20,000 bases of DNA from assembly GCA_010093745.1 (NCBI GenBank), contig MU005998.1:123135-143134 (forward strand), read 5' to 3'. This DNA comes from Piedraia hortae CBS 480.64. Taxonomy: Eukaryota. Positions 4,073 through 20,000 of the stretch are shown here, in pieces; the stretch's first letter is position 1, and every line of letters begins with the position of its first letter. The notes beneath the pieces were generated by a model. That model searched no databases. It saw only the letters and a program-made list of their open reading frames with translations, and was not told the origin of the DNA. Made by a program: the position numbers and the translations under genes.

Positions 4073-7000
4073 TTATCGATGCATCCGCAGCACGTGCGGA
4101 ACAAAAATCCATCGCGTTGATTGGTCCTGCTCTGCATGTTTCCAAACATCGCCCGGCAGAAGTTCTCGTTCCAGGAGATGCGTGGACATTTCTCGCGTTG
4201 CATGGCATCCTTCAGAACAGAGGTATTGGATGTTTAGTACACTACCAATGTGATGCACTGACACAATCTCGTAACGCTAGGTGGGTTTTAGAGGAGCAAA
4301 GTCTCTTGATCGACAAAATCTTTCCGTCCAATTGCGCGATTCGGTATTATCAAACCTTTCAAGCAAGGCTATGCTTGCGTTAGATCTTGCGCTTTGCAGC
4401 GGGAGGAACTCGACCCTGAAGATGGCATTTCGACCATTGCATCGTACGAATGAGCCGATTGTACAAGCGGCAGGGCCCTGCAAACGACATTATCCAAGGT
4501 AGGAGTCTATCTGCCAATCAAGGCTAGCTCGTCATCAAGCGCTTTTGTGATTGGCTGAGTAAGCACAGACACTCGGACGGGCTTTTGGGACTTCTCTACT
4601 GGAAGTTCAATCATGGCGCGGATGTAAGGCTTGCGACAGGCCTCCAGGAACGCATATCCGGGTCGTGTGTCATAGCATTCATCGACGAACTAATAACCGC
4701 TTCCAGCAAGATAATAAATGAAGAGAATAATGCGAGTTTTATTCGCAAGGCCACGCGACGTTGCCCCACGGTTGGTCAGATCCACTAGGCCAGTTGGGGT
4801 CTTTGCACAACTGCGTTCACGCAGAGCTGGCTCGTCCTACTGGACTGCTGGAGCCTTTCCGCGGCTACGCGTGCTGTACAATGGACCTGACATCAGGCCA
4901 GATTGAGGGAAAACGGGATGGTAGTTGATGGTCGAGAAAAACCGACAGCCAGAACCACTCGCTGCAGCACGCCCTTGTTCATTCCCCCGGGAGTTTTTCA
5001 TGGCCCCAATAACTGGTCTGAATCTTCTAGCCCCGTGGGAAAGTGCAGCAGTAGGTGTAACTTGGTTTTTTCTCAGACTTCCTTGACACCCCAAAGCCCG
5101 CTCCACGTTTTCATCAGCTCTTGGCTATTGGAAAGAACCTTAGCCGACCATGCGTCATATCTTCAATGCTTGAGTCGTACAACATTCGAGTCAGGCTCGC
5201 AAGAGTGCACCAAATGCGAATCAACTTGCCCATGCATTTGGTCATCCCCTGAATCGAGTAGAACGCTACCAGTGTAGACGGTAATATCTGGTCTAGGTTG
5301 CGAAAATCAGGTCCAGTAAAGGTTATACCCCAGCTGACTATCGGTTTGGCAGTTGGAAATCTGTCTAGCTCGTCGCGATTGATGGCACCAGCACATAACG
5401 CGAGGGCATAAAGGTCCTTTCGGATCCCTTTTGCCTTCATTGTGCGTTGCCACAGGTATTTCACGTAGCCCAGCAATACACATAGTAAGATTTCGAACGG
5501 GAAGTCGCGGTGCGGGTCAGAACCACCCAGCTTGTAGAAGCTTGTTGGTGGCGATTCGATCCCAAGCGCCCGATTCTTTGTCCCGGTCTTGGTGCGCAGG
5601 ACTTTTCTCAGGCTTGGTGCGTGGATCAAATTGTCTATAGTTAACAGGTGTGTAATCTTGAACGAGCAAACGCGGCAGGGAAAGACGCTGTTCCACAAGT
5701 GTGAACAAAATTCCGAAACCTGCGGGTTATCACCCACACTCATCACAACCCCTTGCAGACCAGTCGCCTCTCCATTTGTTCTGGATCGAAGGCCACCATC
5801 CCCCGTGAAAGTCGTAGCAGCGCGATCAACAGTGCGTCGAATATGCTTTCAGCCGTCATTTTGACTCCTACGGCATGAAAGGAACTTGCTGATGCGTGTA
5901 ATTGCTAGATTGATAAGCCCAAGATCGATATTCATGACTGACCACACCTTTCGCAGCTTTTCCGCCATTGTTATGAGCCAAACTATGAGCGAATTCCATC
6001 TTGAAACTTTCACTGCTCCGATCCCCTCGCACCGAAAGTTTACGTTTATCTGAGATATCTCAAGGCCTTCAGCGGTGGATCTGGCGCGAGCAGAATGCGG
6101 TTGGTCAAGTGATTTTTAAAATATGGGATCCAAGTCTTCACCACTCAGCGAGTAAATCGCAAACTGCCGGCGGTCATAGGACTCAAGCACCCTCGTCTTC
6201 GCGAAGGAACAGCATGGTTGCTTAAAATATTCCGGGGCCCCATTAACGGTTTGCAGTCCAAGAGCGAGCTGTCCATTAACATCCTGAGCAGCAGTCATCG
6301 ATATAGCTCTTATGATCCTCTCCTCCTTATGGGAGCCCTCAACTGTATGTATCTCACAGTCGTTAAAAATGGTAATTTGCGTGCCCTCATCCAATTGAAA
6401 CCGAAGAACGTCGCCAAGTCAGACCGAAACCTGGTCGTTCCAAAGGTGTAGTAACTCCTTCAGGCACTGAAGTTGAGGAGTCCACCACAATTCTTCTCCA
6501 TGCCACAGTTTTGTATACTTCCGGGTTGGACTGGTCCTCCATCGGATGATTTACTAAAAATTACCTCTGGATGCTCTGTGATTGACTTTTCTGGCGTGCT
6601 GAACTGCATGCGGACGATATCGATAAGGTTGATGTTATAAAACGGCTCTCCATCGCTATTCTCGCTGCGTTCCACATTCGGTGTGGGAAATACGTGTCCG
6701 GTACTTCTTGAGTTTCTTCAAAGAAGGAATTTTAGCCTTTCCCGGCAGCTGTATAAATCTGGTACAAAGTAAAAGAATCGCCTTTATCATTTCCTCACTC
6801 ATAGAATACCTCTGTGAATGGAAAAACGCAAAGAGCAGTGCGTCCCGTGGCGAATCAAGTGGGTGCCAGGGATTTGTGGGCTCCGTAAAGTGCGGATTTC
6901 TTGGAGGAATAGAAATTGGCGACCCAGTTTCGTAATCTGATAGCTCAGTCACGTCATCATCTTTCGAACCTATATCCTCCCAGTCTCCTTCATCACACTC

Positions 7001-7243
7001 ATCGAACTCTCCATCATCGAGTGATACCGAATTGTTTCCTTCACTGTGAATTGATTGCATATCCGCGTCATGCATTACAGCATCATCATCCTCACCAGCA
7101 GGCCAAGGGAAAGTCATGGGGGCATCCGCCATACACTGCAAAGCCGCCGCCTCTGTGAGAGTCGGCTCGGCGTTTCCCGCTTGTTCCCATGCAACTCTCA
7201 TCCGTTCACTCGCGTTACGATATCGCTCCCACTGTTCAATCAT
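4073..7243 (-). mobile_element. Frameshifted DDE transposase relic of the CMC (CACTA/EnSpm-Mirage-Chapaev)/Plavaka-like fungal type
   Basis: Collinear motifs across frameshifts on the minus strand: NPWHPLDS..IPSLKKLK (6656-7243 ORF), S.DGEPFY (6460-6675), GMVAFD (~5790), GDNPQVSEFCSH..CRVC (~5670-5734), DPHRDFPFEILLCVLLGYVKYLW, KTKLHLLLHFP/RRFRP (~5010-5070), CTIGSFV (4277-4483 ORF) and VLNIQYLC..C..LER..H (4073-4264 ORF). This is the recalled order in the fungal GDNP..SE.CSH..CR.C..D.P.EILH.VLLG.VKY..K.H.L.H...RRFGP..N.QH.C family. Confidence 0.75.
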
Positions 7244-8724
7244 ATAAAATGTAGCTATGTGCCTCGCCTTCGCTATCTCTTTATTTTCTTGATGCTTTTG
7301 TGTAATGAGATGCGTCGGAGGGGTGAGCCTCCGAGGACTAGAGCGGAGTGGATGTCAACGACAAAAGTTTTCACTCAACTTTTACTGAAACATGTGTAAA
7401 TGTAGATGTCTATCTCTATGAGATGAGGTTCAAAATCCCCCCACACTACCTCAGTCTAACCGCATTTGCCAGGACAACGTCAGCGAGCCATGCCCTTAAG
7501 CATGAACGAGACAATGACCCGTCTCAGGAAAAACTTCCTCTATAGAGGTAAAAACCCTGAGAAGTTTCGACTTCTAGCTAAGGTTCTGGTCATTGTGGGT
7601 GCTACATCCTTTTGACAAGATGCCTTTCCAATTTCCTTCCCTGCAACGTAAATCCATGCCCTTCGTAAGACTTGTCGCAAGCCGGACGTTTGGTGGGTAC
7701 CATGAAAGAACAGATCATGCAAACGGATTGATAATGTTGTTGAAAAGTATCAGTGCCATACCTCGACCTGGTAACAAAGACTATAAAAAGAAAATCCTGT
7801 ATAGCAAAATGCTCAAAGAGCATAATAAAGAGGACAGTGAGGCAATGGAGTGATATTTGAGACTGTCTGAACAAAGAAGCTACTTGTATATAAGCTTTGT
7901 TAAAAACTCAATCTTCAGAACGATTACGCTACGCAACAACTGTCTTCCAACAGGTAAAACCAACGCGTTCACGCCCACGCCATCTTCTTTCCTAAGCTTG
8001 GCAAAATATTCCCTGATGTCCTCAGCACCGACCATTTTGCCGCTCTGGGCATGTGGCCACAGCATTTGCATCGCCAGACCACATAACATGTCTACCCGGC
8101 GTGGCTTCTAGAAACCATGGGATTACTTCATCGCTGTCAATATTAGTCAAATGCGGTCCAGTGCGATCATCGCTGATCATAAACCCAGATAGCATTGACC
8201 TCCCGCTTCGACTGTCCCACGTTGATGCATGATAAAACACACAGAGGAAATTATCTTGGGAAAGCGCGCCTCAAAGAATAATGCTGTCAAAGTGTGGAGC
8301 CGTCATGTAGTTCACTGCGACAATACCATAAATCCAACGTACCAAAACATGATTTTGTCATCATTCCGCCACATCTGGACAAGCACAGCCGGCTTCGAAA
8401 TGAGTCATGCTGAGTGCATATGCTACAGCCTGTCATCAAATACGTGGGACTCGGTAATGTGTTCATACTTCTGTGAGCTTCCTATTGCGCACTTGCAATT
8501 GCAAAATCACGTTGTCCCTAAACGGACGGAAAGAACCCAAGAAAAACTATAGTGCAGGCGTCAGTCGCACAGATAATGAGATCGGAACTAGACCTACGGT
8601 GGCTTTCTTCACACTTACTCCTTTTCGAGCAAACTTTACGCACCTTAATTACTTTTGTACGCACAGGTGGCCTATGTAAGAGCATCAACTGAAGCCTATT
8701 TACCAGTGGGGGAATTTCTCTGCG

Positions 8725-9681
8725 TCATACAACGCTCCACTCCATGTCCAGCTCATCCATCGTTGGGTCCAAGAATGCCTCTGTCGACAATTGGGCTTTA
8801 TTTGCCTCGAATGATTCTTTTGCCTTTTCCAGGTCCATACCCGATTCCACAAGATAAATTTCGGCAAATTTCTCCGTTAAGCCCGTTATCTTTCCAATCT
8901 CCATCACGAGCTGTCCCTTCTCACCGGCATCTTTAATAGCGCTCGCAACGACAGGGGCCGAATCTGCTTTGGCGGGCGACTCTAGTTTGCCATGGTCAAC
9001 GCCCTGTCCTCCACTGCTGCAGCCATAATCCAGACCTTCGCTCTTCTCAGAGAAATCAACATGTTCTTTGATGTCTAGACTGACACCAGCCCAATGCAAT
9101 CCATCCATTCGCAGATAACGACCTTTGGCCCTTTGTGGAATTTGAACCAGCATCTCTCCCGGGGCGATGACGCGAACATTGCGACTCCGACCATCTCCTG
9201 CCTTTCTCTTCAGCCAGTCCAGTAACACTTGAACGCCGCCATCGTGGTTTCCAGAGGCTTTGGAATAACCCCAGTTGGACACTCTGAGTGTAACTGACCG
9301 ATTTTTCCCTGGAGTCACGGGAGACTCTTCGTGACCATTTGAAACGAATCGCCGGCTGGGTGGGATATAACCTCTTTGCCTTTGGTTGTATGATCTGAAG
9401 GATCCAGAGTTGTTTCTTGGCGGGTAGTACGGCCTTCGATGATTCTGTCCGTAATAAGTTCGTCTGCTACGGGGATATGCAGCGGTCAGTCCACCTTGTT
9501 GATCCCTGGCGTCTGCAGATGAATTACCACGCCGCCAATGTGGGTGGCGGTGACGATTCCCATATCGAAAGTTTTGATTAGACTGTTCTAAATCTTCCGT
9601 GTCCGCACGGCATTTGGTACCAGTTTGATGTTCTTGGCTCAGGTTTTGGCCATTGCTTCCATTATTGTGATCGACATCCAT
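8725..9681 (-). CDS. Truncated MEX67/NXF1-family protein: R/Y/N-rich N-terminus, Mex67-type RRM and TAP-C (UBA-like) domain, lacking LRR and NTF2-like domains (318 aa)
   Basis: LRVSNWGYSKASGNHDGGVQVLLDWLKRKA...RMDGLHWAGVSLDI (~9294-9067) resembles the ascomycete Mex67 RRM (SKAASNPDGG..L..LE.KA..NG..FAG..L.I). QLVMEIGKITGLTEKFAEIYLVESGMDLEKAKESFEANKAQLSTEAF (~8922-8770) resembles TAP-C. Single intact ORF with ATG at 9681. Confidence 0.75.
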   Translation of the reverse strand: MDVDHNNGSNGQNLSQEHQTGTKCRADTEDLEQSNQNFRYGNRHRHPHWRRGNSSADARDQQGGLTAAYPRSRRTYYGQNHRRPYYPPRNNSGSFRSYNQRQRGYIPPSRRFVSNGHEESPVTPGKNRSVTLRVSNWGYSKASGNHDGGVQVLLDWLKRKAGDGRSRNVRVIAPGEMLVQIPQRAKGRYLRMDGLHWAGVSLDIKEHVDFSEKSEGLDYGCSSGGQGVDHGKLESPAKADSAPVVASAIKDAGEKGQLVMEIGKITGLTEKFAEIYLVESGMDLEKAKESFEANKAQLSTEAFLDPTMDELDMEWSVV

Positions 9682-10403
9682 TTGGAGGACAGAGTTTGTG
9701 GTGTACAAGATTTTTGAATTTCGAGGAGCTTCTAAGGCAATTCACGTTTGCAGTGATCACTCCAAAGCCATGGTGACTAAAACTTCGCCGTGATAAAACT
9801 CATGTTCAAAGTTTGGGGTGACCTGCAATGCGAATATCATATGATATCAGACTTTCAAGTGACTACTTCTGCCTTCCTGTGCAATTGCTAACATTCTCGC
9901 ACATGCGGCCCTTCCTTGTCATACGATAGCACTAGAGCAGGTGATTGTTCCACCACGATAGCATGAGATGTGAGGTAGGTATAAGGACAAGGGTTAAAGA
10001 TATTCGCAAGCGTGACAATAACAAGGCCTCAATCGCTTGTGCGCGGGCCTAGTCGGACCTAGATACTACAATTGGGTTTAGCTCTTACTGAAAATTGGAT
10101 TCCGCTGCGGGTCTTGGGAGGCGCTAAACCCGATTGGCGCCCTGATGAGTCCGCCTAAAGATAAGTACCTACAGCCCAATTGTCGGTGCAGCGCTATACC
10201 GATGAGCATCGCCTTGAATGCTGTTGAAGTTGGATCAGGTGTGTCAGCAAAGTCTGGGCATGCTATCGGCTTGGGAGCGAGAGTTGTTGTGCTTTCAAGG
10301 GTCGGCGAATCATGCAATGGCCACTTTGACAAGCTCTATGTTGTGAATATGCGGTATATTACGCGCATTATTAGTAACCGGCGCTCGGCTCTCGACTTCA
10401 CGC

Positions 10404-10462
10404 GTCAACTAGTTTTCCGTAGAGATTTGTATGCAGGTACACATCTGCTCACAATTATAATA
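10404..10462 (+). repeat. Left arm of a perfect inverted repeat (59 bp visible) paired with 19942-20000
   Basis: GTCAACTAGTTTTCCGTAGAGATTTGTATGCAGGTACACATCTGCTCACAATTATAATA is identical to the reverse complement of 19942-20000. Confidence 0.97.
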
Positions 10463-10679
10463 CTCTATCACAAAGACCTAGTGGGCCAACGGCGCTTGCT
10501 GTCCCATATTGATACCAGTCGGAGATGCGAAGGACCGTCTTCATGGCATGTTAAGCCATTCAAGACAAGAGTGACTTAATTCGGATTGACGTAGGGATTT
10601 AATTGCGTATCGCAGATCGCTATTTCGATAACTATCGGGTGCCTCTGGATCATGTGCCAATTTCGTTCTGACGCCCACT

Positions 10680-10731: not shown

Positions 10732-12147
10732 ATGGCATTTGACGGTTTGCCCGACTGTCTTTTGGCCTGGCTGCATAATGCCCTTCTGGAGTACGAAGAC
10801 CGTCAAAAGGCCTATGCGGATGTTGTCAACGCCCTTTCTCGCGAGCGCTCACTGCGGCCTCGAATGGAAGCGTATACGGCAGAAAACGGGACCTCATCCT
10901 TGCTGCTAGTCCTTGCAGGCACTTTGAAGGTAAATGTCAAGGGAGTCTTCTATCACTTTCCCGTATCATTGTGGGTTCCCAGACTCTACCCGCACGAACC
11001 GCCTTTAGTTTATGTCACACCGAGGCAGGGCACGACTATTCAACCTGGCCACCATGTTGCGGTTGATGGCCGTGTTTGCCACCCTTACCTGCGAGACTGG
11101 GGGCAGTCGCAGGGTCGTGCCAGTATAGTAGAATTTCTGGATATCCTAACCGGTGTTCTCGAGCATGAGCAGCCGATAAATGAGGCAGGGCCTCCATTGC
11201 CACCTAAAGGTTATAATTCTGACAAGAAAGTGGCTCATTCTCAAGGCTTGCCTCCTCCTCGGCCACCAAAGCCTTGGGGGGCCCGCCAGCAGACTGAACA
11301 GGTCGAAGCTCGCTATAGAGCACCGTTGCCCTTACCCAGCCAAGTACTGCCCCAACAAATACCTCAGTGGACGTCTCTTCAGCGACAGCAAAGATATCTT
11401 CAATCTCCCCAGCAACTCCCCCTAAAGTCCCATTCCGGGCTTCCAACTCATTATTTCTCGTTTTATCGGCCAGAGTTTCAGTCAAGGCTATTCCAGCTTC
11501 GAGCAGATTCACCACAATATCCAAGGCCAAACTCGAGAGAGATACACTCGAGTGATGTGTCCCACAGAGCACGTAAAGCCCCTCAAGACCTGCTCTCCGA
11601 TGCTTTTGAAAAGTCTCAGCCTGTTGTAGAAAATCCTATCCCTCCCATTGCTCCGAACCCCGAAAAAGAACGGCTCCTCCAGTTGCTATCAACATCATTT
11701 GCTGCACAAGCACGGTCCAAGGTCGATCAGGCCAAGACGGCGGCCTCTGACCTCCAAGCGCAGGCACAAGCTCTTACGAAAGCCCAGTCCAGATTAGAAT
11801 CAGAGCTTGCCTTTTTAGAGTCTCTTTCGTTAACGCTGGATGCTAACGAGCGTATTCTACATCAAGCAATCGCCGACTGTGAACGCACTGCTCAACTGGC
11901 TGGGAAGAAGCCTGAACCTCCTATTGATGAGATTTTGTTGGCGCCAACAACTGTGGAAAACCAACTTTGGAGTCTTTGCGCTGATGAGGCGGCTTGTCGA
12001 GAGGCAATGGGTGTCCTTCTCCCCGCCTTGGATAGAGGTCGTATTAGCACTGAAGTTTTTGTCAAGCAGATGCGCGCACTCAGCCGCGAGGCATTTCAGA
12101 AAATGGCACTTGCACGGAAATGTGCCCATAGACTCGGCCTTGACTAG
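10732..12147 (+). CDS. VPS23: ESCRT-I subunit Vps23/Stp22 (TSG101 homologue), 471 aa
   Basis: N-terminal UEV domain (LLLVLAGTL..YHFPVSLWVPRLYPHEPPLVYVTP..HVAVDGRVCHPYLRDW), proline-rich linker, coiled coil, and C-terminal Vps23 core/SB box (IDEILLAPTTVENQLWSLCADEAA..LDRGRI..FVKQMRALSREAF). ATG at 10732; no intron is needed. Confidence 0.95.
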   Translation: MAFDGLPDCLLAWLHNALLEYEDRQKAYADVVNALSRERSLRPRMEAYTAENGTSSLLLVLAGTLKVNVKGVFYHFPVSLWVPRLYPHEPPLVYVTPRQGTTIQPGHHVAVDGRVCHPYLRDWGQSQGRASIVEFLDILTGVLEHEQPINEAGPPLPPKGYNSDKKVAHSQGLPPPRPPKPWGARQQTEQVEARYRAPLPLPSQVLPQQIPQWTSLQRQQRYLQSPQQLPLKSHSGLPTHYFSFYRPEFQSRLFQLRADSPQYPRPNSREIHSSDVSHRARKAPQDLLSDAFEKSQPVVENPIPPIAPNPEKERLLQLLSTSFAAQARSKVDQAKTAASDLQAQAQALTKAQSRLESELAFLESLSLTLDANERILHQAIADCERTAQLAGKKPEPPIDEILLAPTTVENQLWSLCADEAACREAMGVLLPALDRGRISTEVFVKQMRALSREAFQKMALARKCAHRLGLD

Positions 12148-15568: not shown

Positions 15569-16024
15569 CTAGCCCCCAGTGGCACCGTTGCCCGTTAATC
15601 CGACCTCAACGCCCTGAACTCCTTCTAAATCCCCATTACAATCATCACCATCGATAACGTCTTCATCTAAGTGCCGCATGACCTGCAAGACCAGCGCTAG
15701 ATTCTCAAAGTACCCATTGACTGCAACCCTCAACATTCTATCTGTGGAAGCTTCGTAATCCGTTTGCAAAACAACTCTCTCACTGGAGGACATTGTGCCG
15801 TTTGGTTTGTCATCGTCTTTACCTCCTTCCAAAGCCGGTGCTATTAGAGTAAACTTTCGCCTTACAAACTTGGAAAGCTCTTCATCAACGCTCAAAGTGC
15901 CCATGGCAATCGCTGCCAATCGTTCTGTTGGAAACGTTGTTTGGATTTTTCTTCAAGTGTTAGGACTGTCCGTACTTCGAGCGGAAAGATGAACGCACAA
16001 GCAAACTGGAAGCACCTCTGCCAT
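15569..16024 (-). CDS. PCC1: KEOPS/EKC complex subunit Pcc1, 135 aa; exons 16024-15999 and 15950-15569
   Basis: Splicing a 48-nt intron at 15998-15951 (GTGCGT donor, CCTAAC branch, AAG acceptor) gives MAEVLPVCLKIQTTFPTERLAAIAMGTLSVDEELSKFVRRKF...VLQTDYEASTDRMLRVAVNGYFENLALV. This carries the Pcc1 signature (FP..RLA..A...L.VD.EL..R..MLRV.VN). Confidence 0.9.
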
Positions 16025-16462: not shown

Positions 16463-19018
16463 ATGGACTGGACCGGCGGCGCACGACGAAGGTTTGCTCA
16501 ACGTGAAGATACAGTTGTACAGAAGCAAAGGGCACATTTTGCCAGCGTGAGAGCAGCGCAGAATGCCGCACAGGAACGCCAGCCTGAGCCACGAGGCGCT
16601 GCCATAGGGAAGCAACCCATCGCCAATCTCGATGCTGAGGCAGGTCTGATCAGGTCGCATACTCAGGCCGCGTATGTTGCGACGAGGCAACAGGCTGGAC
16701 CGACAACTTGTCCCAGCGCAGAGGACGAGCTGCTTCTGATTCAACGTCGCCGCTTGCTAGCCAAACCAGATTGGCCTGGAATTGCCACTGCGCGGCCAGT
16801 TCGAATGAGGTTTCCATCGGTTGCTGAGAAAGATAGGATAGGAAAGAGACGAAGAGTCGAATCCAAACCCATGGAAGACGCAGCTCAAACACCTTCGTCG
16901 GCAATGTTTATGAGCGAAGTCGATTCGACTGTAAATTTCAAAGTGGGCACTGAGGCTCTGAAGAGTCAAACCGTGACCATGCCGAAGAGCACTGTGGTAG
17001 GTACCAGTTTGAGACACATGTCGGGGCCAGTAATAGGCCCTTCGTCTCTGTATCTGAAGAGGGCTCAAGAGGCAGATCTTCCATCAATCTCTAGAAGATC
17101 TCCTGTGGACCATCTGAGTGACATGCCGACATCGCACAGAAATGTGTCATCTGACTTAGAGTCTATCTCCGAAGAATCGATGCTTCTAGGTGATGATGGA
17201 GACCAATCCGAACTTAATCTAAAGAAAATGTCTCTCGTCCAAAGTGCTGCGCCTCAAGTGCCACAGATGTTTTCCCATCATGGCACAACTTCAATGCCGT
17301 TCGAATGGAGTTCCACGATTCACGATGCTGTAGAGGACAAACCTTTGCGTCACTTTCAGAACGAAGAGGAACACGGTGAACTATCAGCACTTCTGAAATC
17401 GAAGGCGGGGATTGTCCATCCTTCACCCGAATTGAGTATAGAGGAAGTGATTGCAGCTCGGGGTCTCAATGATCAAACCAGAAGAATTGAGAATTGGCGC
17501 CACAAAAGCTGCACACAACTAGGAATATCTGCCATTTGCCGTTATTCAGGATCCCCGTCTAAGTTCGATCAGGATCGCGCTGACTTACATCTAGAGGTAG
17601 CAGATGGTATATCTGGCTCAGGCGCCAGAAGAACGAGGGAGGAACAAGCTGTCCACAATCCTAGTGGTACTCGTGGCAATGACACCCACACACTTTCCAC
17701 TCCTCATATCCCTAGGACTACCGCGAACTGCAACGTTGCCAACCCGTCCGAAAACCCAACTATTAGCCAGCGGTGTCATAACTTAGCACCTTCAACCTCT
17801 GCGGTATCCCACTTCCATATTCGAGTAGGAGAGTCTGGTCTTCACGAACAAAGCAGGTGTATGATTGACTTGAGAGCAGAAAATGGCACTTTCAACTTAT
17901 TACGTGCCACTAACAAGACTCCTATGGAGTTGAGTGTCCATTCCAAGGAAGAGGAGCCACGAAGAAGGCCACTTGGCGTGAGAGACTATCCAAACACTGT
18001 TCAGTATGGTGCGGATGGATTCTCAACACTGCCTCAGAACGAACTCGACATGGTCGATGATTCGAAGTCTAGAATGTCGACTGCGGAAAGGCAGCCAGAA
18101 GGTATGACTGAGACGGACCGAATTGAGGTAGGCATGGATGCCAAACCTGAGCAACCATTGAAGAAGTCCACCGGCATTGAGATCAATCCTCGAGCTGGGC
18201 CACGCGCTCTGGAGGGTGTCCTTGCTCCGCAAGAACATGCTAATTTATCCCCGAGGGCCTCTGATGCCAGACACAACCATGGCATAGAAACAGCATTTAA
18301 CAACGAAGGAACGTCTACTGGGCGCTACCAATCGCAGAAAAACGCGGCCGTCAAGCAGCCTTCTCGCGCCCCGGAGCCCAATCCCGAACCGGACCTCAAG
18401 CTCGAACCTATTGAAGGTAGGGTCTTGCGAGCTTCATCTACAATTTCATCACCTACAGTCAGCCAATACTTTAATACGTCCCGGGCAAATACAGACTTTC
18501 TATCAGAGGTGCAGGAACACAGCAGAAACGACATCAGTGCAGATTACTTCGCGGATAATTTATCCTTGGGTAAGAGTCAATCTGTATTTGAGCCCAGGCA
18601 ATAGGATCATCAAGTTGATAATGTCCTAGGCCATATCACAAGTCAAACAACTCAACAGGGCCAACCCAACCAGGACCCTGATCATACGATCAAGCAGCAT
18701 ATGGTAGAAACCGAAGATGAAGAAACCTTCTGGCGCAAACTAATGAAAATCTCCACGAACACAATCAGCAGCACGAGCAATGCCAACGAACCACAATTAG
18801 ATGAAACGGTTAACGAGCACGTGGGAACCTCTGAAGAGCTGAATCCAGTGGTAAAATTGAGATCTTCCTCACCTCAAGCTACTCTAAGTTGTTCACAGTA
18901 TTGGAATGATCAGTCCTTGCAGCAAATCGGCTTTGGAGAAGAGGCGCTAGCCAGTGAAGTTTCGGTCTTCACTATCAGTGGGCTTGGAACTTCGGACATT
19001 GCTACAGTAGGGAGTTGA
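16463..19018 (+). CDS. Large, mostly disordered fungal hypothetical protein with MxWTGG N-terminal motif; probably exons 16463-18569 and 18630-19018
   Basis: A 713-aa ORF begins MDWTGGARRR..QKQRAHFA and contains a second block, RRRLLAKPDWPGI..PVRMRF..IGKRRR. The 18701-19018 ORF is in the same frame, separated by a single TAG (18602-18604). That TAG lies inside a candidate 60-nt GTAAGA...TAG intron (18570-18629). Confidence 0.7.
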
Positions 19019-19920: not shown

Positions 19921-19941
19921 GTGACGGGCCGAGACGAAGAC

Positions 19942-20000
19942 TATTATAATTGTGAGCAGATGTGTACCTGCATACAAATCTCTACGGAAAACTAGTTGAC
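19942..20000 (-). repeat. Right arm of the perfect inverted repeat (truncated by the window end)
   Basis: Its reverse complement is identical to 10404-10462 over all 59 visible bases. Confidence 0.97.

Follow-up and report, generated by a model that had tools for sequence, protein, structure and literature searches.

The window, the whole 20,000-nt stretch of the Piedraia hortae genome analysed here (G000, contig C42, positions 123135-143134), carries a gene related to the mRNA export factor Mex67 on its minus strand (Table 1). A first-pass annotation had claimed one intact ORF at this place, and the frame was found at exactly 8725-9681, where 954 nt in a single exon encode 318 aa (P0001) without a stop and without requiring an intron; the same sequence is also present as a predicted protein in a public protein collection. 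The proposed architecture, that is, a basic and aromatic disordered N-terminus, a Mex67-like RRM, a linker of ~48 aa and TAP-C, was borne out by family profiles, AlphaFold2 and Foldseek. Pfam TAP_C (PF03943) matches residues 257-303 with an E value of 1.8e-7, which passes the curated cut-off, while Pfam RRM_9 gives no match in the protein. In phmmer searches of the PDB, the Chaetomium Mex67 RRM (4wpm) aligned with residues 116-207 (E 4.7e-6) and the Chaetomium UBA (4wp2) with residues 251-305 (E 4.9e-4). Profiles derived from 20 full-length relatives placed the RRM at 129-209 (51.5 bits) and the UBA at 254-305, and detected neither LRR nor NTF2L. AlphaFold2, run on residues 119-309 with 67 sequences, predicted the RRM fold and, for the UBA, three helices, both at pLDDT values of about 85-97, with the linker below 55. 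Foldseek searches with this model gave 4wpm as the top match (E 7e-7, rmsd 1.4-1.6 A) and superposed 4wp2 at an rmsd of 1.0 A.

Table 1. Features of the Mex67-related gene and of the repeat beside it, in window positions.
Feature	Position	Strand	Basis
Mex67 paralogue ORF (disordered N-terminus, RRM, linker, TAP-C/UBA)	8725..9681	-	Pfam, phmmer, family profiles
N-terminal low-complexity region, aa 1-128	9298..9681	-	composition
Mex67-type RRM, aa 129-209	9055..9297	-	phmmer, family profile, tree alignment, AlphaFold2, Foldseek
Ancestral (by comparison of loci) phase-0 RRM intron after Lys-Lys, missing; approximate site	9170..9185	-	frame continuous
Disordered linker, 44 aa, aa 210-253	8923..9054	-	profile boundaries, AlphaFold2
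TAP-C/UBA three-helix domain, aa 254-305	8767..8922	-	Pfam, family profile, AlphaFold2
Short acidic C-terminal tail	8728..8766	-	sequence comparison
305-bp solo-LTR-like repeat, (T)GTC...GACA ends	7313..7617	.	genome search; separate from gene

The family-profile and AlphaFold2 domain checks recovered RRM and TAP-C/UBA, with LRR (PF24048) and NTF2L (PF22602) absent. The RRM retains the family residues W137, D147-G148-G149, L153 and W156 as well as the LRMDG..WAG stretch. The linker, 44-48 aa long according to the domain boundary chosen, stands where relatives have about 420 aa of LRR and NTF2L. Since NTF2L is missing by profiles, the protein has no Mtr2/Nxt1 interface, as had been predicted, and one FG site at most. 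Translation of C42:91000-143134 in six frames, with stops read as X, revealed no LRR or NTF2L remnant beyond those of two other Mex67 copies on this contig. Neither the linker as an LRR remnant nor the N-terminus as captured sequence could be upheld, both lacking a significant match. Residues 39-113 (window 9343-9567) are rich in Arg and Tyr (17 Arg, 11 aromatics and a net charge of +15 over 75 residues), and the first 128 residues, whose best hit among stored relatives reached a non-significant E of 1.0, probably form an RNA-binding disordered tail. The AFLD..MDE ending is shared with an intronless copy 12 kb away (G000:C42:118.5-119.5k), a likeness that is weak alone (E 1.6).

Two unusual residues mark the UBA when it is aligned with 195 other domains. 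The conserved Trp of this domain takes part in pore binding; our literature search returned no passage on that role. Its column is aromatic in 191 of the 195 and Met in none, and the window copy has Met (M282). Tyr (Y276) occupies the column in which 185 of 195 domains have Cys and yeast has Leu. At the position equivalent to yeast G583, the pocket holds a small residue, S290, with the next Phe kept; Ser is also found in Chaetomium Mex67, and the column is variable, with Leu in 24 of 195. Judged from these residues, FG binding by the window UBA may be weakened or lost, and the Trp-to-Met and Cys-to-Tyr changes could represent a compensating core swap or a new binding surface.

The gene had also been placed at the boundary of a zone of transposon relics. 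That description held in part: the solo-LTR-like repeat lies 1.1 kb downstream, flanked by a 5-bp target-site duplication (7308-7312 and 7618-7622) and present at no fewer than 40 other places in the genome at 88-97% identity, but none of 13 frames scanned from 1-8700 matches a Pfam transposon family. The repeat sits at the start of frame 6656-7354. Minus-strand positions 4840-7354 hold broken frames which, the repeat aside, occurred only once in the genome search; we presume a resemblance to fungal DNA transposase motifs, and the ORFs have no Pfam match, leaving a transposase identity unsupported. VPS23/TSG101 (UEV and Vps23_core) occupies 10732-12147 on the plus strand, in divergent orientation to the mini gene and 1.05 kb away from it. 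Further along, a Pcc1 (KEOPS subunit) domain lies at 15569-15904 on the minus strand (E 1.7e-12), and a 713-aa ORF at 16463-18604 on the plus strand matches no Pfam family. A 63-nt inverted repeat (10404-10466 and 19938-20000, 98% complementary), one arm of which is the contig's very end, is perhaps a small mobile element at an assembly break.

A profile search for TAP_C located five Mex67 copies in the genome, at C5:223k, C56:40k, C42:96k, C42:118k and in the window. Gene models built from the DNA have the order RRM-LRR-UBA at C5 (408 aa), C56 (317 aa) and C42:119k (331 aa), and RRM-RRM-Gln-rich-LRR-UBA at C42:96k (697 aa); the window copy is RRM-UBA, the LRR (PF24048) being kept in the other four. 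The C56 model is identical letter for letter to public protein P0080, and public proteins filed under Piedraia hortae are identical to the exon-2 product of C5, to the C56 protein and to the 697-aa protein. The public C5 model P0003 (268 aa) begins at an internal Met and leaves out exon 1; the likely C5 protein of 408 aa is encoded with a 161-nt intron (L003:1291-2678, G000:C5:222.2-223.6k). In the C42:94-96k copy (G000:C42:94051-96252, L014:3051-5252), two tandem RRMs each contain the ancestral intron, 54 nt long in both, and are accompanied by a Gln-rich insert; a Pro/Gln linker of 100 aa takes the place of NTF2L.

Gene models and profiles agree that an NTF2-like domain is absent from all five copies. 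A full-length Acidomyces Mex67 query yielded 10 matches at the same five loci, none of them within residues 364-604; the NTF2L part of another relative, searched alone, had no match in the genome at E 10, and the PF22602 profile found only Ntf2 itself. This family is present in 7/7 other proteins of a near-length search and in 68/68 of a longer one, the latter biased to long proteins. It is very probable that this organism has no canonical Mex67. Upstream of the C5 copy lies a divergent GNAT gene, a neighbour that canonical MEX67 also has in 6 of 51 loci from relatives (metagenome loci, many of them short or distant; the six represent five distinct sequences at 47-56% identity), which identifies C5 as the copy at the ancestral locus, with NTF2L lost in place. 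Only 9 residues separate LRR from UBA in this copy, and the junction sequence is identical in C5 and C56. A DUF1776 gene, which adjoins MEX67 in one relative, lies near the C42:96k copy, a weaker hint than GNAT.

These results recast the window gene, which had been read as an odd paralogue beside a normal single MEX67. That picture finds no support, since all five copies lack NTF2L: our search for a separate full-length MEX67 returned none with this domain, and the orthologue at the ancestral locus is already without it. A proposed role as competitor of the canonical heterodimer is likewise left without a target, no NTF2L-bearing copy having been found. The suggestion of an Mtr2-independent adaptor fits the absence of NTF2L, but describes the whole five-copy family rather than the window copy alone. 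As far as the alignments tell, what is specific to the window copy is its lost LRR and altered UBA, together with a lost intron that C42:119k has lost as well. The RRM and TAP-C/UBA are homologous by sequence and fold to those of fungal Mex67 (4WPM, 4WP2, 4XM4; S. cerevisiae; Teratosphaeriaceae P0011 and P0052), and the domain order is the same; the window protein differs from the canonical form in having no LRR or NTF2L, a replaced UBA Trp and no ancestral intron, and the genome in having five copies instead of one. The gene is thus homologous to Mex67 and not a canonical member. Piedraia hortae has the smallest genome and the fewest genes of a 101-genome set, according to the available text of PMC7082219, so the five-fold expansion opposes the trend.

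We searched the genome for Nxt1/Mtr2 with PF10429, PF02136, PF22602 and its own Ntf2 as queries, and obtained only Ntf2 and a Bre5/G3BP-type gene. In a PDB control, the Ntf2 query retrieved animal Nxt1 chains at 29-35 bits and no fungal Mtr2 chain, so a fungal-type Mtr2 could escape the genome search; the chances that the Nxt1/Mtr2 gene has been lost are about even. Sac3 (G000:C60, L077:2269-4983, minus strand) is 905 aa long, contains 0 FG and has an Arg-Gly-rich N-terminus of 112 aa before the core domain, and minus-strand frames of at least 60 aa in the surrounding 9 kb contain one FG at most. The three Atlas clusters that match Sac3 best measure 1300-1554 aa. Sac3N of Chaetomium carries ten FG motifs to which NTF2L binds, and such motifs show no strong conservation from one species to another, as the available part of PMC4509546 reports. 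Joint loss of the Sac3 FG motifs with NTF2L is possible on this comparison with Chaetomium. The Mlp1 C-terminus (L079, G000:C29:188047-194152) has several NPF/SPF motifs and no NPFG; Chaetomium has two NPFG. On co-loss, the Sac3 and Mlp1 evidence is mixed.

The history of the window copy was approached through its missing intron and through trees. At the RRM intron site, 39 of 43 relative loci have at least 40 extra bases, most with a donor directly after the Lys codon, and judged by these loci the intron after Lys-Lys is ancestral. It is kept in C5, in C56 and in both RRMs of C42:94-96k, and absent from the window and C42:119k copies, in which its loss is probably one event. Clean removal of an ancestral intron is a retrogene trait; of the others, no poly(A) tract was seen by eye in about 430 nt downstream, and neither a target-site duplication nor an unlinked insertion was found. 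Three copies are confined to 39 kb of a single contig, an arrangement that local duplication following the intron loss would explain as well. The young solo-LTR-like family suggests a possible source of reverse transcriptase. In a careful tree of RRM plus UBA (30 rows), the three C42 copies, that of the window included, formed one group (84/88) amid Teratosphaeriaceae-like rows, and a single clade of all five copies was not rejected (p-AU 0.23). A quick tree of 61 rows, in which the window copy covers 45% of the columns, placed this copy apart from the Piedraia group, at a position lacking strong support. Its pairing as sister of C42:119k alone is absent from the best tree and not rejected (p-AU 0.38), at a point where long branches meet. 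The UBA Cys column is aromatic (Phe/Tyr) in the three C42 copies and in 0/195 other domains. We infer an order in which the ancestral gene would have lost NTF2L through an in-frame deletion fusing LRR to UBA and then been duplicated; one branch would have lost the RRM intron via spliced RNA and, by local duplication, given rise to the C42:119k and window copies, the latter losing its LRR afterwards.

The window gene had been described as an intact paralogue, and both column identity and a stop-free simulation now show purifying selection; it is almost certainly a real constrained gene. It shares 29% identity with C5 over 141 aligned positions, distributed as 16/25 conserved versus 7/60 variable columns (p 2e-6), a contrast that arises partly from selection on the C5 branch. 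Against the three copies compared, second codon positions are 49-54% identical and third positions 31-40%, and four-fold sites are near saturation (4/17 versus C42:119k, 7/21 versus C5). When drift was simulated neutrally with indels excluded, 140 codons remained free of stops in 0.8% of runs at the divergence observed and in 6% at 60% identity, giving a no-stop chance of 0.008-0.06. The branch leading to the window copy is 1.6-2.2 changes per site long, which indicates that constraint is relaxed. RIP was considered as a cause of this fast divergence and rejected, as no RIP dinucleotide signature exists in any copy or in any kb of the window.

In canonical Mex67, NTF2L binds Mtr2/Nxt1, and NTF2L and UBA provide two FG-binding sites; NXF1 in which a second UBA replaces NTF2L works partly (Braun 2002, cited in PMC4330390 and PMC4330393, in the available text of both). 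This engineered TAP/NXF1 exports without p15 at about half the CTE activity (same portions of PMC4330390 and PMC4330393); it has two UBAs per chain and keeps the LRR, whereas the copies described here are of natural origin with a single UBA each. In Aspergillus nidulans, mexA, nxtA and double mutants are viable, and nxtA-null growth is normal at 37 C (available text of PMC3192866), so loss of NTF2L is tolerable in a filamentous ascomycete. Our preferred reading, which we hold with moderate confidence, is that the window protein is a monomeric RNA-to-pore adaptor with one binding site; its predicted action in RNA export through FG binding is an evenly balanced call. The five proteins would work as monomers with no need for Mtr2/Nxt1, each with the UBA as its one pore-binding site, and hold RNA by the RRM plus LRR or, in the window copy, the RRM plus the Arg/Tyr tail. 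Because export requires two nucleoporin-binding sites, the missing one would most likely be supplied in trans by several Mex67 molecules per mRNP. C5 would be the main carrier, and the mini protein an accessory, low-affinity adaptor in the pool. A wider version of this model is more tentative: the heterodimer would have been abandoned altogether, with NTF2L, the Nxt1/Mtr2 gene and the Sac3 FG motifs lost, leaving a set of Mex67 variants, monomeric and with one site each, that would share out the tasks, RRM-UBA being their minimal natural form, in a rewiring that recurs in filamentous ascomycetes.

Somewhat unlikely, yet the strongest competitor of monomeric one-site export, is a neofunctionalised adaptor whose RRM and basic tail bind RNA and whose UBA binds a non-nucleoporin partner, so that RNA is retained, silenced or localised and not exported. 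The replacement of Trp and Cys in a UBA whose fold is kept, the loss of LRR alongside a new Arg/Tyr tail and acidic C-terminus, and a long branch under constraint are all in line with such a change. Drosophila Nxf2 and Nxf3 are likewise diverged export-factor paralogues with an altered UBA, and the Nxf2 UBA, which binds Panoramix (10.1101/608273, available part), offers a precedent. Piwi domains of the Argonaute type, three of them full-length, are also encoded in the genome, and a young repeat family is present. None of the results connects the gene with transposon silencing. The parallel is limited, however: Nxf2 keeps RRM, LRR and NTF2L and depends on Nxt1 (from the same part of 10.1101/608273), whereas the window copy has no LRR or NTF2L, and the pocket blocked by a bulky residue in Nxf2 holds the small Ser here, as in Chaetomium, in a column that varies anyway. 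Proximity to the repeat is uninformative for an element with at least 40 copies. The Piwi-domain frames lie on G000:C2, C38, C23 and C74, three long and one broken; Argonaute genes are kept despite the small genome.

A decaying duplicate, constrained while the LRR was present and non-functional since, with the open frame as a recent leftover, is improbable. Such decay could account for the loss of LRR and conserved UBA Trp and for the lowest GC3 of the five copies (0.47 versus 0.56-0.68), in a pathway that A. nidulans can dispense with. It would also suit the outcome of a homologue search, in which 585 candidates (174-557 aa) included no protein of the mini form besides the window protein itself, which does not imply absence elsewhere. 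The frame, however, runs for 954 nt with no stop or shift, its unalignable 128-aa N-terminus included, the RRM core residues are kept, and the neutral simulation argues in the same direction; adjoining VPS23 has the same GC3 of 0.47, and a RIP signature is lacking. Still less credible is an assembly artefact that dropped LRR and NTF2L from a normal gene or hid canonical MEX67 in a gap: the assembly is a draft of 132 contigs without a completeness figure, and absence from a draft is never proof, but NTF2L is missing at five separate loci, all joined in frame, the assembly does contain the orthologue at the syntenic site, where the domain is already gone, C42:91000-143134 contains no N and the window no direct repeat of 25 nt or more, and 0.95 of 130 31-mers sampled from window 8600-9800 recur in a run from another sample and study (1.00 in the possible source run; the missing 31-mers of the other run come without positions).

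Loss of NTF2L extends beyond this genome. A UBA without NTF2L occurs in 41 of 228 stored proteins, five from this genome, one with four UBAs and 35 from elsewhere with the order LRR-UBA or RRM-LRR-UBA; these Pezizomycotina proteins share the loss of NTF2L but keep the LRR, which the window copy lacks. Among 30 proteins looked up, named sources include Polyplosphaeria, Massarina, Pyrenochaeta, Cladophialophora, Fonsecaea, Hypomontagnella, Phlyctema and Trizodia, which puts NTF2L-less Mex67 in no fewer than seven other named lineages of fungi. The 61-row quick tree requires at least 13 changes of NTF2L state, and the loss has apparently arisen many times, as seen in protein models of which some may be gene-calling errors. 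RRM-UBA alone describes 1/228 stored proteins, the window protein, in a set whose main searches were led by the LRR. The ESM Atlas gave no usable feature match, Mex67 clusters appearing only as structural rows 2 and 3 at a TM of about 0.4. Trypanosome Mex67, Mex67b and Mex67L are likewise a lineage-specific expansion with differing domain sets and two members close on one chromosome; according to the available text of PMC12774637, LRR, NTF2L and Mtr2 binding are retained in all three, whereas here every copy has lost NTF2L.

Teaching presents Mex67-Mtr2 (NXF1-NXT1) as the mRNA exporter that animals and fungi generally use, each receptor having two nucleoporin sites, and an orthologue without the dimerisation domain offers a natural test of whether one FG site per receptor suffices. 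The real purpose of Nxt1/Mtr2 and the TREX-2 mRNP handover without NTF2L are further points testable here, and the five copies form a natural deletion series (RRM-LRR-UBA, RRM-RRM-LRR-UBA and RRM-UBA) in view of a pathway that is non-essential in Aspergillus. That dispensability and the recurrent loss of NTF2L in other fungi lessen the surprise. A literature search, mostly without subscription papers, returned no description of an NTF2L-less or Mtr2-independent fungal Mex67, and the recurrent loss in other fungi is apparently undescribed. Seven NTF2L-less rows of the quick tree (P0165, P0156, P0197, P0208, P0211, P0213 and P0217, Cladophialophora immunda included) form a starred clade on a long stem that would represent a conserved subfamily, and P0187 of Meristemomyces frigidus carries four tandem TAP-C domains behind an unrelated N-terminus, with no RRM, LRR or NTF2L.
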